This document shows, in pieces, positions 1,925 to 43,568 of a DNA stretch of 44,776 nt (the first letter of the stretch is position 1; each line of letters opens with the position of its first letter). The stretch is from a virus (taxonomy: Duplodnaviria > Heunggongvirae > Uroviricota > Caudoviricetes), in IMG/VR virus record IMGVR_UViG_2648501797_000002, positions 1 through 44,776 of that record, one strand, 5' to 3'. The notes under the pieces were generated by a model, which saw only the letters and a program-made list of their open reading frames with translations, was not told the origin of the DNA and did not search any database. The position numbers and the translations under genes were made by a program.

Positions 1925-2548
1925 TCATGCGGCATGGTCGTGGTTTTTTATGCTGGAAATTTCTTTCTCCAGCTCTTCCAGGAACTTTTTCACTTCGGAC
2001 TCAATCTCATTTGCCAGTGCTTCGTCGAAGTGAATGCGCTTTTTGAAATAGGCGAGGTCTGGTGGTAGACGATCGTCGAAACTAACGAAATCACACCATT
2101 TACGCCCTGTGCACATCATCTGAGCGTGCATCTGCAGCAGGTACTGGCGTTTTGGCTCGCCAGTTTTTAAGGTCTCAAGATGAGTCCAGGTGTTGGGGCA
2201 CTTAATTTCGATAAGCCCATCACCATTAACAAGCCCATCAGGGCTTGCTGCAAATCCTGGTATAGATGGGTGATCGATAAGCCCCACTTCAGTGATTTCG
2301 GCATCGAACTCATTCAGCGCATACATTTCGCGCGCTACCGGCTCGAGTTCTGTTCCGCGCATCATTGCGGCGTTGGAGAAACCTTCTTCAAGCTTCCCGG
2401 TGAGGCGCTGGCAAATCAGCTCGGCCATGTAGTTCTGTCGGCTTGCGGCATAGCCAGACTTGGTTCTGGCCATGACGTCAGCAAGGCGGCTGGCTGTGAC
2501 TTTTCCGCAGCGAGCGGCAAACCATTCTGGGGTGCGTTGTTCCATCAT
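1925..2548 (-). CDS. YqaJ-like recombination exonuclease (lambda Exo-like fold)
   Basis: 207-aa ORF immediately downstream of RecT; resembles YqaJ-type viral recombinase exonuclease (recalled from memory). Confidence 0.75.
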   Translation of the reverse strand: MMEQRTPEWFAARCGKVTASRLADVMARTKSGYAASRQNYMAELICQRLTGKLEEGFSNAAMMRGTELEPVAREMYALNEFDAEITEVGLIDHPSIPGFAASPDGLVNGDGLIEIKCPNTWTHLETLKTGEPKRQYLLQMHAQMMCTGRKWCDFVSFDDRLPPDLAYFKKRIHFDEALANEIESEVKKFLEELEKEISSIKNHDHAA

Positions 2549-5524: not shown

Positions 5525-6442
5525 CTACCAGTTCGGTAGCTCACGCAAAGAATACTTAGGCTTTCCATTACCTACCTGAGTGCAGAGGAATTTTGCAATA
5601 ACTTTTTCTCCGCGGTGATCGTTGATAATGTCTGGATTGTCTATGTAATTACTGATTTTCGCTACAAAAATTGATTTAGATTCATCATGCTCCATAATAA
5701 ACTCGCATTGACGTTTATGAGGAAGGGCTCCCAAGAAGCTAACTTCTAATAACTGCAAATCTTCTTTAACACTATCTTTACTTAGCTTGAGGACCGCTCT
5801 TTCAATATCATTGATATTGTTTGCAACAAGCGCTTGGTTGTTATGCCTTAAAGTAAAAGTTGCTTTGTTATCAAATAGTATTTGTATAAATCCACGTATT
5901 TTATCTAAAGCTCGGTCATCCAAATCACTAATCGCCTCAGCTAGACCATCATCGTCTCCCCTTATACTCATTTGCAGGATAGATTGAGTCTGGTTCAGAG
6001 CTTTTTGAACAGAAGATTCCTCATCAAAGTTAAGCGGGGCATCTGGCCTAAATTCCTCAAGTGTAAATCCAAAAGAACCTTTGGCTGTTCCAGTAATCAT
6101 AAGCAAATTATTTTCAAGATTTGGAATTTTACCTTTGGCCGGTAATTTCCCTGAAAATGAAGATGCAACATGAGAAACCGCATCATTAAAGGCGTTAACT
6201 ATTTTGGTTCCGAAATTTGCAGCTATGCCATATGTACCAAGTACAGGGGCTCCTCTAAATGTTAAAGTGGCTTTAACTGGCGGATGCTCATCGATAACAA
6301 TATGAGAAATCTCATCATTTAGCTCATGGAGCCTGCTTTCAAGGCTCATTTTGCCAATAATGTCATCATCAGTAGTGGTTTCTAAAAGAGACAGGATTGA
6401 GTCCCGCTCACTTAGAACGAACAAGTAATCGTCGCGATTCAT
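5525..6442 (-). CDS. Uncharacterized 305-aa protein, downstream partner of the NTase-fold gene
   Basis: AT-rich ORF, 4-nt overlap with the upstream gene; no motif recognised. Confidence 0.6.
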   Translation of the reverse strand: MNRDDYLFVLSERDSILSLLETTTDDDIIGKMSLESRLHELNDEISHIVIDEHPPVKATLTFRGAPVLGTYGIAANFGTKIVNAFNDAVSHVASSFSGKLPAKGKIPNLENNLLMITGTAKGSFGFTLEEFRPDAPLNFDEESSVQKALNQTQSILQMSIRGDDDGLAEAISDLDDRALDKIRGFIQILFDNKATFTLRHNNQALVANNINDIERAVLKLSKDSVKEDLQLLEVSFLGALPHKRQCEFIMEHDESKSIFVAKISNYIDNPDIINDHRGEKVIAKFLCTQVGNGKPKYSLRELPNW

Positions 6443-7026
6443 TGCTCACCTCCTTCTGATAGCATTGTTTCTAAAATGGTTAATGCCTGTTGATCCAGTG
6501 TAATATCTAGAGGAATCTGCAAGAATCCCTTCCATGTAAGATCCCTTCTATGAGACCACATACTGTACCAATATACAGTCCTTTCTACAAGCTGCTCCTT
6601 AGAAACGCCCAGTGACTGGAAGTAAGAATCAACTCTAAACTCTTGCTTTCTCCACTTACCCATATGTGGCACAAACAGATTCGGGTTACGCATAACGACA
6701 TCTTGCTGCGTTTCGTTAAACGCCAAATTAAAAAAAGTCACAACATCAATGTCATTTGGCGGACGTTTTTCAATGAGTTCAACATCTTCTATGAAACTAC
6801 CATCGATCCATTGAAAACCATCCGTTAACCCAGTTTTATTAATTTCTTTACGAAATTTGATGAAACCGAGTAAGATCTCGATCCTTTGTGGGCTTGTAGC
6901 GTACCGCTCTACAAATTTTAATATATCTGTCTTATATGGGGAGCGATAGGCGCTGGTTGGATGCTCCATATCCATTGGTGGGATTACACCAATTTCATTC
7001 CAGTTAGGAATTTCCTGAATCACCAT
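6439..7026 (-). CDS. Predicted nucleotidyltransferase-fold protein (195 aa)
   Basis: GS...DxD pattern (IDGSFIEDVELIEKRPPNDIDVV) consistent with a Pol-beta-type minimal nucleotidyltransferase; AT-rich. Confidence 0.5.
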   Translation of the reverse strand: MVIQEIPNWNEIGVIPPMDMEHPTSAYRSPYKTDILKFVERYATSPQRIEILLGFIKFRKEINKTGLTDGFQWIDGSFIEDVELIEKRPPNDIDVVTFFNLAFNETQQDVVMRNPNLFVPHMGKWRKQEFRVDSYFQSLGVSKEQLVERTVYWYSMWSHRRDLTWKGFLQIPLDITLDQQALTILETMLSEGGEQ

Positions 7027-7336: not shown

Positions 7337-8047
7337 TCACACAAGCCTTAACTTAGTTTCTACGGCCACACCAATGATTCGACAGTTTCCGTTGATGGGA
7401 ACCAATGGCCATTGAGGGTTTAAGCCCTTCAGGTACTTCTGGTCACCATCAATGATCAGTTTTTTGAATGTCGCCTCGTTTGATTCCGAGAGTTTTGCAA
7501 TAACGAGACTTCCGTTGACCGGCTCCCTTCCGGTATCAAAAAGAACATATGTACCCTCTGGTATGCTGAGCCCGACCGGGGCAGTCATGGATTCCCCCTC
7601 GACCAACAACCAGAACGCATCCCCCTGGATGTGAGCGTCTGATTCGAGCCATAGATCGATATCTTTAAGTGCATACGGCTCGCACGCTTCCGACCAATGC
7701 CCAGCCTGAATCTTGCTTAATACAGGGTATTTAATGCCTGGGGTGTACTGGCCTACATACTTGGCATTCGATGTAGCGGCAGCACTCATTGCAGATATTT
7801 CTTTCGCAAGGCTGGGGCTAAAATCAGAGACATCCACCTGGAGGGCTCTGGCAAAAACAGCAGCCACGGCAGCATTAAGGGCATTCCTGCCATTCAAGTA
7901 ATGCCCAACGCCACCCTGAGATATGTCTAGCATGTCAGCTATTGATTGCTGTGTTATCCCAAGCTCTTTTTTCTTGGCTTCATAGAGGGCTTTCAGCCTT
8001 TCTGCGTCAGCGATCTGAGCCGATGTCAGTGTCTTTTTCTTTTCCAT
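7337..8047 (-). CDS. cI: CI-like prophage repressor (HTH plus S24 LexA-like autopeptidase domain)
   Basis: N-terminal HTH (ITQQSIADMLDISQGGVGHYLNG); C-terminal ESMTAP serine motif and FKKL lysine motif like lambda CI; start at ATG 8047, close to the operators. Confidence 0.85.
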   Translation of the reverse strand: MEKKKTLTSAQIADAERLKALYEAKKKELGITQQSIADMLDISQGGVGHYLNGRNALNAAVAAVFARALQVDVSDFSPSLAKEISAMSAAATSNAKYVGQYTPGIKYPVLSKIQAGHWSEACEPYALKDIDLWLESDAHIQGDAFWLLVEGESMTAPVGLSIPEGTYVLFDTGREPVNGSLVIAKLSESNEATFKKLIIDGDQKYLKGLNPQWPLVPINGNCRIIGVAVETKLRLV

Positions 8048-8082
8048 TTTCAAATAGTAATACCAATGCTCTTATTTTAAAA

Positions 8083-40731: not shown

Positions 40732-40751
40732 TACTGTATATAAAAACAGTG
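40732..40751 (+). promoter_or_regulatory. LexA (SOS) box TACTGTATATAAAAACAGTG overlapping a -10-like TATA element
   Basis: CTGT-N8-ACAG palindrome matching the LexA operator consensus, 17 nt upstream of the ATG at 40768. Confidence 0.7.
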
Positions 40752-40767
40752 TTTATGGGGGGAGATC

Positions 40768-41007
40768 ATGCTTCGACAGTCAGACATCACTGCGGCTTTC
40801 CGCGAGTCGGTTTTGCGCAGTTCCAAGGGGTTCCAGTACCTTCACACCAGAGACTTCGTTACCGCGCTGCGCCGGCGCGGCATCCATTTTTCCGAGGTGG
40901 AGGCGAACTCTTGGATCGCACGCGAGCAGACGTATTTCGTCGATAAGACGCCGGACCATAGCGAAAACAGGCTGTGGATGATGGCCAACATGGGGAGGGT
41001 GATCTAA
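40768..41007 (+). CDS. Hypothetical 79-aa protein, first gene of the SOS-box cassette
   Basis: Strong RBS GGGGGGAG; ends with TAATG overlap into the next gene. Confidence 0.5.
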   Translation: MLRQSDITAAFRESVLRSSKGFQYLHTRDFVTALRRRGIHFSEVEANSWIAREQTYFVDKTPDHSENRLWMMANMGRVI

Positions 41008-41324
41008 TGGGATTCCCTTCACCCGCGACGGACTACGTCGAGCAAAGGTTGTCTGTTAACTCGATCTGCAATGTCGGCCCAAACACGCTAGTTTTCGAGC
41101 GATCTGGTGGTTACGTTGTACTGGATATCTCCCTGAAGCCAAAGCAGGGTAGTCAGATTCTGATCCAACACGGCGGCGGGACGGAACTTGCCACGCTGAG
41201 AGGAAAGGCGCTGATTACTGAAGATGGTGAAGCGATCGATGGCGAAGCCCTGGACGATGTTACTGTCATCGGGGTCGTGACATTTACTATCTGCGATGTT
41301 CGTTCTGATAATTCTATTATTTAA
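41007..41324 (+). CDS. UmuD-like protein beginning at the UmuD-prime-equivalent position and lacking the catalytic Ser
   Basis: N-terminus MGFPSPATDYVEQRLSVN matches the UmuD segment after its self-cleavage site; C-terminal LDDVTVIGVV matches UmuD; the SGDSM region is replaced by SGG. Confidence 0.6.
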   Translation: MGFPSPATDYVEQRLSVNSICNVGPNTLVFERSGGYVVLDISLKPKQGSQILIQHGGGTELATLRGKALITEDGEAIDGEALDDVTVIGVVTFTICDVRSDNSII

Positions 41325-41335
41325 CTGGGGTATAT

Positions 41336-42367
41336 ATGGCGCTGAAGCTATTAGCCAATAATAACGCAAAGAGTGTGCTCGCTGCGGGTATTAGCGCGTC
41401 CGCTACCGTTATTACCGTGGGTACTGGAGCGGGGTCTTTATTCCCTTCCCCTGTATCTGGACAGAGCTATTTCAAATTAACGATAACCGATGCGGCGACG
41501 AAAACAATTTCTGAAATTATGCACGTTACGTCTGTATCCGGTGACGTGATGACAGTAATTCGTGGTCAGGAAGGAACTACGGCGCGCGTATGGTCAACGA
41601 ATGACATTGTCGCGAATTTAATGACCGCCGGATCATTATTATCTTTCCTGCAGATCAGTAATAACCTGTCAGAAATTAAAGACGCAGGACAGGATGCGGT
41701 AAATGAAGCCCGTTATAACCTCGGAATATCTGATTCCTCTGGTTTTGTCGGGCGTTCACTTGGCGCGCCAAAAACTTTCTATGCAAACGGAACCTATACG
41801 CGATCAGCGCTGGCCCGTTTTGCAAAAATAACGATGGTCGGAGGCGGCGGTGGTGGTGGTGGGTGCCAGGCCTCAAACAATACAGAAACCTTCTCCGGTG
41901 CCGGCGGCGGCGCGGGGGCGACCATTATCGTATGGGTTGACCTGTCTGCTGCCAGTTCTTATGCGATTACTGTCGGCAAGGGTGGTAAGGGCGGAGTTGG
42001 CGCAGTAAGTGGTGCGGATGGTGGGGCTACCTCGTTTGCCAGCCTGTTCTCAGCTCCTGGCGGGAAAGGTGGCGTGAAGTCAGGAGTGTCCAATACCGCC
42101 GGCGGCGCCGGAGGTACGGCTTCGTCCGGAGATATCAGGATCAACGGAGGTGCCGGCTCAGATGGACAGACAGGGTCAAGCCTTCTGACGGGCAACGGTG
42201 GGGCGTCGTATTTTGGCGGCGGTGGCCGGGCGGGTTCTCAGGCCGGTATTGCTGGCGCAGCTCCCGGATCCGGTGGTGGTGGCGCTTATGACCTTGGGTT
42301 TACCGGTACGGCATTTACCGGTGGTGATGGTGCTACTGGCATGGCGATCGTGGAAGAATTCGCGTAA
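41336..42367 (+). CDS. Glycine-rich fibre-like protein with C-terminal domain related to that of the 36582-37451 gene
   Basis: Gly-rich blocks (GGGGGGGGC..., GGKGGVGAVSG..., GGAGG...) and terminal ...GMAIVEEFA; 11 nt after the UmuD-like gene. Confidence 0.5.
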   Translation: MALKLLANNNAKSVLAAGISASATVITVGTGAGSLFPSPVSGQSYFKLTITDAATKTISEIMHVTSVSGDVMTVIRGQEGTTARVWSTNDIVANLMTAGSLLSFLQISNNLSEIKDAGQDAVNEARYNLGISDSSGFVGRSLGAPKTFYANGTYTRSALARFAKITMVGGGGGGGGCQASNNTETFSGAGGGAGATIIVWVDLSAASSYAITVGKGGKGGVGAVSGADGGATSFASLFSAPGGKGGVKSGVSNTAGGAGGTASSGDIRINGGAGSDGQTGSSLLTGNGGASYFGGGGRAGSQAGIAGAAPGSGGGGAYDLGFTGTAFTGGDGATGMAIVEEFA

Positions 42368-42371
42368 TGGC

Positions 42372-43568
42372 TTACTCTCCTGCGCGACCATCGATGTAAT
42401 CAGCCCACCACTGCATCATTTCTCTGCGCTTATCGAGATACTGAGCATGGTTGTAAATACCGCGCACAGATCCGCCGTTGGCATGTGCCAGCTGCACTTC
42501 AATAGCGTCAGCAGGCCATTCGTGCTCGTTCATAATCGTGCTGAATTCATGCCTGAATCCGTGACCGCTTTCCAGACCTTCATAGCCGATTTGTTTGATC
42601 ACAAGCAATACCGCGTTCTCGCAGATTGGCTTCTTCTTATCGTTGCGCCCGGCAAAAACAAACTCTGAGACTGGTTTGGTGATTGAGCTTAGCGTAGTGA
42701 GAAGTTCAACCACCTGGTCTGACATCGGGACCACATGAATTTTGCGTCCCTTCATCACACTGGCGTCGATGGTGATAATCCTGTTTTCAAAATCGACGTT
42801 CTTCCATAGCATGGAACGAAGCTCTTTTGTTCTTAGGGCTGTGTAGCGTAAAACTTTGGTCGCAATGAGCGATACGATACTTCCTGAAAATGTTGCAAGT
42901 GCTTTGTTGAATGCCGGGATCTGGTCGGCAGGTAAAAACGGGAAGTTCTTCTTGCGGTATCCCTTCATGGCGTCAGCAAGGTCAGGTGCCGGGTTATATT
43001 TAGCCCTACCAGTGACAATAGCGTAACGGAAAACCTCGCCGCATCTTCTGCGGGCTTTGTTGGCTCGCTCCATTGCACCGCGATCTTCAAATCTGCGGAT
43101 TACTTCCAGCAGTTGCATCGGCTCAATATCCTGAATCTCAAGACCGCCGATGATGGGTAAAATGTCGTCATCAAACATTTTGGCAAGTTCAGTTGCATAG
43201 CCTACTGACCAGACTTGCTTCTTGTGCTCGTACCATTCCTTGTAAATCGCACTAAATGAATTGTTGTTAGACGAAGCCTTTTTCGTCTTTACCGGATCGA
43301 TGCCAACCGAGATGTCTTTCCTCGCAGTCCATGCCTTATCCCTTGCTTCCTGCAAAGTCATAAGCGGATATTTTCCGACGGTCAGGATTTTCTCCTTACC
43401 GTCAATCTTGTAGCGAAGCTGCCATACCTTTTTCCCTGACACAGGGACATAAAGGTACAGGCCATTACCATCGAGAAGGCGGTATGGTTTTTCTTTCGGC
43501 TTTGCTGCTTCAATCTGCTTAACGGTGAGCATGGGTAAAAATCCGGTGGGTAAAATTATTTTATCCAC
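42372..43568 (-). CDS. intS: Tyrosine integrase (IntS-like)
   Basis: C-terminal HGFRHEF and tyrosine-containing motifs; adjacent to tRNA-Arg 3' end; symbol assigned from the argW-adjacent genomic context in E. coli. Confidence 0.85.
   Translation of the reverse strand: MDKIILPTGFLPMLTVKQIEAAKPKEKPYRLLDGNGLYLYVPVSGKKVWQLRYKIDGKEKILTVGKYPLMTLQEARDKAWTARKDISVGIDPVKTKKASSNNNSFSAIYKEWYEHKKQVWSVGYATELAKMFDDDILPIIGGLEIQDIEPMQLLEVIRRFEDRGAMERANKARRRCGEVFRYAIVTGRAKYNPAPDLADAMKGYRKKNFPFLPADQIPAFNKALATFSGSIVSLIATKVLRYTALRTKELRSMLWKNVDFENRIITIDASVMKGRKIHVVPMSDQVVELLTTLSSITKPVSEFVFAGRNDKKKPICENAVLLVIKQIGYEGLESGHGFRHEFSTIMNEHEWPADAIEVQLAHANGGSVRGIYNHAQYLDKRREMMQWWADYIDGRAGE

Follow-up and report, generated by a model that had tools for sequence, protein, structure and literature searches.

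Pre-processed UmuD' proteins encoded by phages are not new, and P1 HumD, N15 gp26 and HK140 gp28 are established examples. HumD functionally complements E. coli UmuD', as stated in the P1 record and in the title of McLenigan et al. (1999), cited in PMC11541004. Two sets of contacts described for the E. coli protein are relevant here. UmuD residues Y52, F94, D91 and E93 contact RecA*, and F26 and P29 also touch RecA (PMC9926225). [quoted passage not shown] Besides the concept of P1 HumD, a 'UmuD-like' label in PHROGs and a remark on similarity to HumD in the GenBank record of phage mEp390 were already available.

We analysed a gene for a UmuD'-like protein, which we call mini-HumD, in a stretch of viral DNA of 44,776 nucleotides (the window). 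The features of the window are collected in Table 1. The original prediction, which described a UmuD' mimic without a protease site, overlooked the LexA box, the overlapping upstream gene orf79 and the pre-processed UmuD' proteins known from phages.

Table 1. Features of the window discussed in the text.
Feature	Position	Strand	Basis or remark
Large ORFs of 716 and 267 aa	37707-40662	+	5' of the SOS operon; no Pfam match
LexA (SOS) box TACTGTATATAAAAACAGTG	40732..40751		exact pattern match CTGT-N8-ACAG
orf79, 79-aa conserved partner of mini-HumD	40768..41007	+	ORF call, PHROG 3893
Shine-Dalgarno-like GGGGAGGG	40992..40999	+	read from sequence; 7 nt 5' of ATG 41007, within the 3' end of orf79
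mini-HumD, 105-aa UmuD'-like protein	41007..41324	+	ORF call, phmmer, PHROG, hhalign, AlphaFold
Glycine-rich protein	41336-42367	+	Pfam Gly_rich_2, PHROG tail-fibre families; poly-Gly run
Integrase	42372-43568	-	adjoins host formate/nitrite-transporter gene
DUF6932 protein (195 aa) and 305-aa protein	5525-7026	-	between cI and the early-left operon; 305-aa protein without Pfam match
Second CTGT-N8-ACAG, CTGTACCAATATACAG	6563-6578		exact; inside the DUF6932 gene adjoining cI
CI repressor	7340-8053	-	HTH + S24 domain; QAG, GESM, FKKL motifs

The window is a lambdoid prophage of the Klebsiella type, and its nearest phage records are Klebsiella phages. At about 7-9.6 kb it carries the genes for CI (HTH and Peptidase_S24), Cro and replication protein O, followed by the head and tail genes. 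From its motifs, CI is probably RecA*-cleavable like lambda CI. The DUF6932 gene and its neighbour occupy a position, between cI and the early-left operon, that often holds accessory or defence genes. Directly upstream of the SOS operon, the 267-aa ORF belongs to PHROG 19357 (unknown function), and presumably both it and the 716-aa ORF encode tail-spike or receptor-binding accessory proteins. On the other side of the operon, the ORF for the glycine-rich protein starts 11 nt past the mini-HumD stop codon with no terminator in between, and there is a promoter-like site at 41283-41312; the ORF may share a transcript with the SOS operon. The same order of mini-HumD and glycine-rich gene is found in RothC and some E. 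coli prophages.

Mini-HumD starts with MGFPSPATDYVEQRLSVN. The original prediction placed this start at the position that follows the self-cleavage site of UmuD, and phmmer aligned residues 2-44 with UmuD 25-67 and with residues 1-43 of the UmuD' crystal chain (E 5e-5). The start, M-GFPSPATDYVEQR, thus coincides exactly with the post-cleavage residue Gly25 of UmuD, in a reference sequence that was verified against PDB 8gmt_B. The propeptide cut at a Cys/Ala-Gly bond is absent, as the protein begins at the Gly itself, and the pre-processed start M-GFPSPA, a feature of the HumD family, is present. The C-terminal part, for which similarity to UmuD had also been predicted, does align: ALDDVTVIGVVTFTI pairs with UmuD SEDTLDVFGVVIHVV in both MAFFT and hhalign. 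With the short family (mini-HumD and its relatives of similar length) compared by hhalign with UmuD, P1 HumD, N15 gp26 and HK140 gp28, the probability was 99.2% (E 2.9e-19) over 100 columns. The similarity to UmuD and HumD is far beyond chance, and the homology is full-length.

Profile searches gave a consistent picture. PHROG 3469, 'UmuD-like protein', matched mini-HumD with E 1.5e-45, and the closest named family was HumD (NCBIfam NF051876, E 1.1e-12, residues 1-101 on positions 1-121 of the 129 in the model), at a score far below the equivalog cut-off of that family (48 vs 120 bits). Pfam PF00717 (Peptidase_S24) gave zero matches even at E <= 1. In the AlphaFold model, residues 1-22 form a disordered arm, and the β-rich core has a pLDDT of about 85. 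A Foldseek search of the PDB with this model returned UmuD', the LexA C-terminal domain and the lambda CI C-terminal domain as top matches (TM 0.5-0.6, probability 1.00), and together with hhalign it assigns mini-HumD the β-fold of the Peptidase S24/LexA-UmuD group. Start position, homology and predicted fold therefore agree with the proposed resemblance to the already processed UmuD'.

The protease site has been lost. MAFFT and hhalign agree that mini-HumD lacks UmuD residues 57-67 (SGDSMIDGGIS, 11 residues), which include the nucleophile Ser60, and that a second gap removes UmuD 104-108. The column of UmuD Lys97 is occupied by Ala62 in mini-HumD and by Ala or Gly across the short family, and the Ser60 loop is deleted in all 83 short-family members aligned. 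An alignment search for the Ser60-Lys97 dyad in mini-HumD found none. In the original prediction, SGDSM was replaced by SGG with a short deletion; the deletion is real, whereas the serine of 'SGG' is S, D, G or E among near-identical homologues and is therefore neither the nucleophile nor a surrogate for it. With the Ser60 loop deleted and Lys97 replaced by Ala, mini-HumD is incapable of self-processing, as had been proposed, and a protease-dead UmuD' mimic is the right reading as far as sequence can show. RefSeq and NCBI names for some homologues of identical length are 'S24/S26 family peptidase' and 'UV protection protein'; the first is misleading, as these proteins have neither the catalytic Ser loop nor the Lys.

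The short form is neither rare nor decaying. It is very common in temperate phages of Klebsiella, E. coli, Enterobacter, Pantoea and Erwinia, with thousands of copies in the databases. A word-indexed search with mini-HumD gave 729 clusters at 90% identity, almost all of 105 aa, and some of these clusters represent thousands of sequences (Klebsiella, Raoultella, E. coli); an exhaustive search gave 207 clusters at 50% identity (E <= 1e-3), most of them 100-110 aa long and aligned from residue 1. The gene is carried by 116 phage genomes and by 130 of 5426 complete E. coli genomes. The dN/dS ratio is 0.08-0.11 for mini-HumD and 0.08-0.18 for orf79; these values come from comparison with two close relatives, as distant loci are saturated or affected by ungapped comparison. 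Purifying selection on mini-HumD is strong.

Conservation is concentrated in the arm. The N-terminal GFPSPAxD motif (G2, F3, P4, S5, P6, A7 and D9) is invariant in 83 of 83 short-family members, with mean column identity at about 49%, and G74, G79 and G89 are nearly invariant. An acidic motif, ITxDGExIEGEALD, is strongly conserved in the short family and has no counterpart in UmuD. Most members also end in a DDxxP[VI] tail (Pro in 72 of 83), which occurs in P1, N15 and HK140 and is missing from UmuD; mini-HumD itself ends in RSDNSII, without the tail Pro.

To place the gene in its genomic setting, we compared 80 loci, one genome per species from Enterobacteriaceae and Erwiniaceae, retrieved with a query of 10 aligned sequences and supplemented with phage loci. 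A UmuC query validated as IMS/IMS_C/DUF4113 detected no UmuC homologue in the window, and none in the surrounding 3 kb at the 80 species-representative loci. The core of the LexA box in the window, CTGTATATAAAAACAG (40734-40749), is a perfect CTGT-N8-ACAG and lies 18 nt 5' of the orf79 ATG. A perfect match to this pattern, which by our own estimate should arise by chance roughly 0.006 times per 400 nt, lies upstream in 71 of the 80 loci, and SOS control of the short gene thus appears conserved. Its distance to the short gene is about 275 nt with orf79 in between and about 35 nt when the gene stands alone. P1, N15, HK140, mEp390, Flotzy and RothC also carry a perfect match; the equivalent box is annotated as a LexA binding site in the P1 record, and the box of N15 gene 26 lies about 32 nt upstream. 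Scanning for sigma-70 promoters gave no consensus match at the LexA box, and we therefore place the promoter solely by the position of the LexA box. The window as a whole contains two exact matches against 0.65 expected, and the copy near cI may be there by chance.

The gene between the LexA box and mini-HumD, orf79, is a conserved partner. Its stop codon TAA (41005-41007) shares one base with the mini-HumD ATG (TAATG), and this overlap, together with the Shine-Dalgarno-like GGGGAGGG, suggests translational coupling of the two genes. A homologue lies directly 5' of the umuD'-like gene in 60 of the 80 loci, as well as in HK140, mEp390, Flotzy, Erwinia phage 59 and RothC; in about a quarter of the loci the short gene lacks orf79 and follows its own LexA box directly. 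The orf79 family (PHROG 3893, unknown function, E 5e-40) comprises 721 clusters, with 24 invariant positions among 25 diverse members, and almost always immediately precedes a HumD-like gene, short or long. The AlphaFold model of orf79 has a pLDDT of 90 and a winged-helix-like H-E-H-H-E-E topology; structural searches of the PDB and of viral folds gave weak winged-helix matches and otherwise the family itself. No significant match was found in Pfam, NCBIfam, PADLOC or PDB sequences, and PADLOC returned zero defence-system matches for mini-HumD, orf79 and their neighbours. A tblastn search of the window with HK140 DinI gave only noise (E > 1), and the topology of DinI differs from that predicted for orf79. 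P1 Lxr was considered as a relative of orf79, and the comparison gave no informative match.

Annotation of orf79 is uneven. Beside the copy in the window, we located copies at 2262-2501 in HK140 (L005) and Flotzy (L007), at 2257-2499 in locus L006 and at 2262-2501 (+) in mEp390 (L004). The mEp390 copy (hmmsearch E 3e-47) is absent from the GenBank annotation, which lists a 42-aa ORF on the opposite strand (2295-2423) at that site. The names 'DNA polymerase V' and 'putative invertase', given to orf79 by some sources, have no visible basis.

Comparison of related loci points to the origin of the short form. In HK140, a LexA box, orf79 and a gene for a 129-aa HumD-like protein follow each other between the tail fibre gene and attP. 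The same type of cassette is found in mEp390 and Flotzy, but there it carries a short form of 106 aa. The short form has thus replaced the long one in an otherwise unchanged module, and the DDxxP[VI] tail, common to long forms and most short forms and not found in UmuD, marks the short family as a deletion derivative within the HumD clade. In mEp390, HK140 and Flotzy, dinI (around 1900-2260) is transcribed away from orf79 and the humD-like gene but shares their LexA box, so that the three genes make up a compact bidirectional SOS module. No dinI is present in the window, and dinI is nearby in 10 of the 80 loci. No conserved partner was found downstream of the short gene; the glycine-rich ORF follows it only in phages of the Klebsiella type.

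Contacts to RecA* and to the UmuC tail have not been preserved in the core. In the short-family alignment, Y52 is replaced by R, L or I and F94 by T, N or S, and D91 and E93 are variable; UmuD positions 91-93 are Gly-Gly-Gly in mini-HumD. F18, L21 and Q23 of UmuD are absent from the short family, while the long HumDs keep Y52 and E93. Of the partners named in the original prediction, the RecA filament consequently seems the least likely. The UmuD' residues S36, T71, K73 and E69 correspond to UmuD S60, T95, K97 and E93. The short family has lost S60, carries Ala or Gly in place of K97, and conserves neither T95 nor E93. As the residues that hold the UmuC tail in the model are gone, canonical anchoring of UmuC may be lost.

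We hypothesize, tentatively, that mini-HumD stands in for UmuD' as a pre-activated, SOS-induced surrogate and engages host UmuC with its arm. It would be a shortened, catalytically dead member of the HumD lineage that is expressed only in the SOS response. DNA damage would lead to cleavage of LexA and free the box at 40734-40749, whereupon orf79 and mini-HumD would be co-transcribed and co-translated. Methionine aminopeptidase removes Met1 when Gly is the second residue. Because mini-HumD has Gly at position 2, the enzyme would probably expose an N-terminus GFPSPA..., the same as that generated by RecA*-stimulated cleavage of UmuD. The protein would dimerise via a retained helix (RLSVNSIC) and a C-terminal strand (IGVVTFTI), which correspond to the presumed dimer-contact elements of UmuD'. 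The invariant arm would then engage a Y-family polymerase of the UmuC type in the host, as modelled for the arm of UmuD', and the prophage would provide Pol V with its accessory subunit, or take charge of that subunit, while skipping the slow processing of UmuD. In a pre-cut protein the protease site would be dispensable, and hence deleted. Removal of Met1, dimerisation, the UmuC partner and the direction of the effect (activation or interference) are all inferred.

The surrogate reading is favoured by full-length homology to UmuD and HumD with an S24-type predicted fold, by the complementation of UmuD' recorded for P1 HumD, by the continuity of the module with that of the long HumDs and the tail common to both forms, by the invariant arm and the place of the UmuD' arm in the Pol V model, by SOS control and by a dN/dS of about 0.1. 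Against it stand the loss of the pocket for the UmuC tail, the sub-threshold HumD score, the acidic motif of the short family, which could mark a different partner, and the conserved orf79, which does not figure in Pol V biology as known. In a second reading, which we consider rather unlikely, mini-HumD and orf79 would be a separate two-protein SOS module unrelated to Pol V. The degenerate S24 core would serve as a scaffold that binds orf79, or DNA, a regulator or a replisome component. The overlap of stop and start codons, the pairing of the genes in 60 of the 80 loci and purifying selection on both are consistent with such a module, as are the loss of the contacts to RecA* and to the UmuC tail, the gain of an own acidic motif, and the confident, compact fold of orf79, a protein rich in invariant polar positions and without known homologues. 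However, orf79 is dispensable, given the quarter or so of loci without it; its pairing with a long HumD in HK140 indicates that the association predates the deletion; and an invariant, UmuD-specific arm is hard to explain without a partner of the UmuD type.

A combination of ideas goes further from the surrogate reading. Mini-HumD might not activate a polymerase at all, and its repurposed, RecA-blind, protease-dead S24 core, with nothing but the arm kept from UmuD', could form, with orf79, a new SOS module that either blocks host Pol V (as a phage anti-mutator or a poison of UmuD/UmuD') or brings the arm to another target. We regard this as doubtful. Antagonism of Pol V by mini-HumD itself, through inactive complexes of its arm with UmuC or heterodimers of its core with host UmuD/UmuD' that limit error-prone synthesis on phage DNA during induction, seems improbable to us. 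Retention of the arm and of the presumed dimer elements without the pocket for the UmuC C-terminus would suit a poison, expression coincides with prophage induction, and the CI of the phage has a canonical Ala-Gly site, GESM and FKKL. But HumD, the nearest characterised relative, promotes mutagenesis, and no precedent for a UmuD'-like inhibitor was found in the literature searched.

It is quite improbable that mini-HumD acts as an uncleavable pseudo-substrate of the RecA filament that modulates cleavage of LexA, CI or UmuD in the manner of DinI or RecX. S24 proteins bind in the groove of RecA*, and F26 and P29 of UmuD, which touch RecA, belong to the conserved motif (PMC9926225); LexA-controlled phage operons often contain a RecA modulator (PMC3121763), and in related phages dinI diverges from the LexA box. 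Yet the core RecA* contacts are not conserved, and F18, L21 and Q23 are absent. A reading of mini-HumD as a umuD gene in decay or a product of faulty annotation, as its shortness, its failure to match Pfam Peptidase_S24 and its lack of catalytic residues could suggest, is effectively refuted by selection (dN/dS 0.08-0.11) and conservation, with a length of about 105 aa that is constant over the 729 and 207 clusters, a conserved LexA box and Shine-Dalgarno sequence, and no umuC fragment nearby.

If mini-HumD feeds host Pol V, as the surrogate reading holds, prophages would tune SOS mutagenesis directly and without RecA-dependent timing, and would thereby also tune how antibiotic resistance evolves when drugs damage DNA. 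The short family can also be seen as a natural minimisation experiment on the parts of UmuD' that are selected once self-cleavage is unnecessary. Its outcome is an invariant N-terminal arm and the loss of the active-site loop and of the RecA*-contact residues. In the literature searched, we found no description of a systematic active-site loop deletion, of the loss of RecA* contacts alongside an invariant arm, or of the conserved orf79 partner.

Among known systems, the phage SOS modules with an antirepressor and DinI (186 Tum, Gifsy GfoA/GfhA and N15 AntC) resemble that of mini-HumD in being small LexA-controlled operons outside the immunity region. They are set apart by the repressor: antirepressors of the Tum, GfoA and AntC type go with a repressor that lacks self-cleavage and is inactivated by binding, whereas the CI of the window has QAG, GESM and FKKL. 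As a CI with the Ala-Gly site and these motifs makes an antirepressor unneeded, an antirepressor role of the Gifsy/186 type (PMC3121763) is unlikely for mini-HumD. The genes STM14_3218-3220 of Gifsy-1 are unrelated. Hex of phage 434 shows that a phage can interfere with RecA-mediated cleavage, but it is no precedent beyond that and is not an S24 protein.

E. coli UmuD is a 139-aa precursor that undergoes RecA*-stimulated self-cleavage with Ser60 and Lys97 and is co-transcribed with umuC, and mini-HumD shares none of these properties. With E. coli UmuD', on the other hand, it shares the start point, a nearly identical arm (GFPSPA-DYVEQR), the fold and regulation by LexA. The closest likeness is to the long HumDs. 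P1 HumD, N15 gp26, phiKO2 gp23, HK140 gp28 and the HK639 protein are phage-encoded, start with M-GFPSPA and have no propeptide, as is the case for mini-HumD, and a LexA box upstream and the absence of an adjacent umuC are likewise common to both; the DDxxP[VI] tail of the long forms recurs in most of the short family. The layout of an orphan gene behind a LexA operator is therefore that of the HumD family, and the layout in P1 is identical. Lambdoid long HumDs even occupy the same site between the tail-fibre genes and attP/int, in HK140 with orf79 as well. The differences lie in the protein: long HumDs have 128-129 aa, score 28-36 bits against Peptidase_S24 (cut-off 23.3) and keep the active-site loop (with Ser in P1 and Thr in N15 and HK140) and Lys97 in addition to Y52 and E93, whereas mini-HumD, with 105 aa, falls below the Pfam S24 threshold and has shed both the loop and Lys97.
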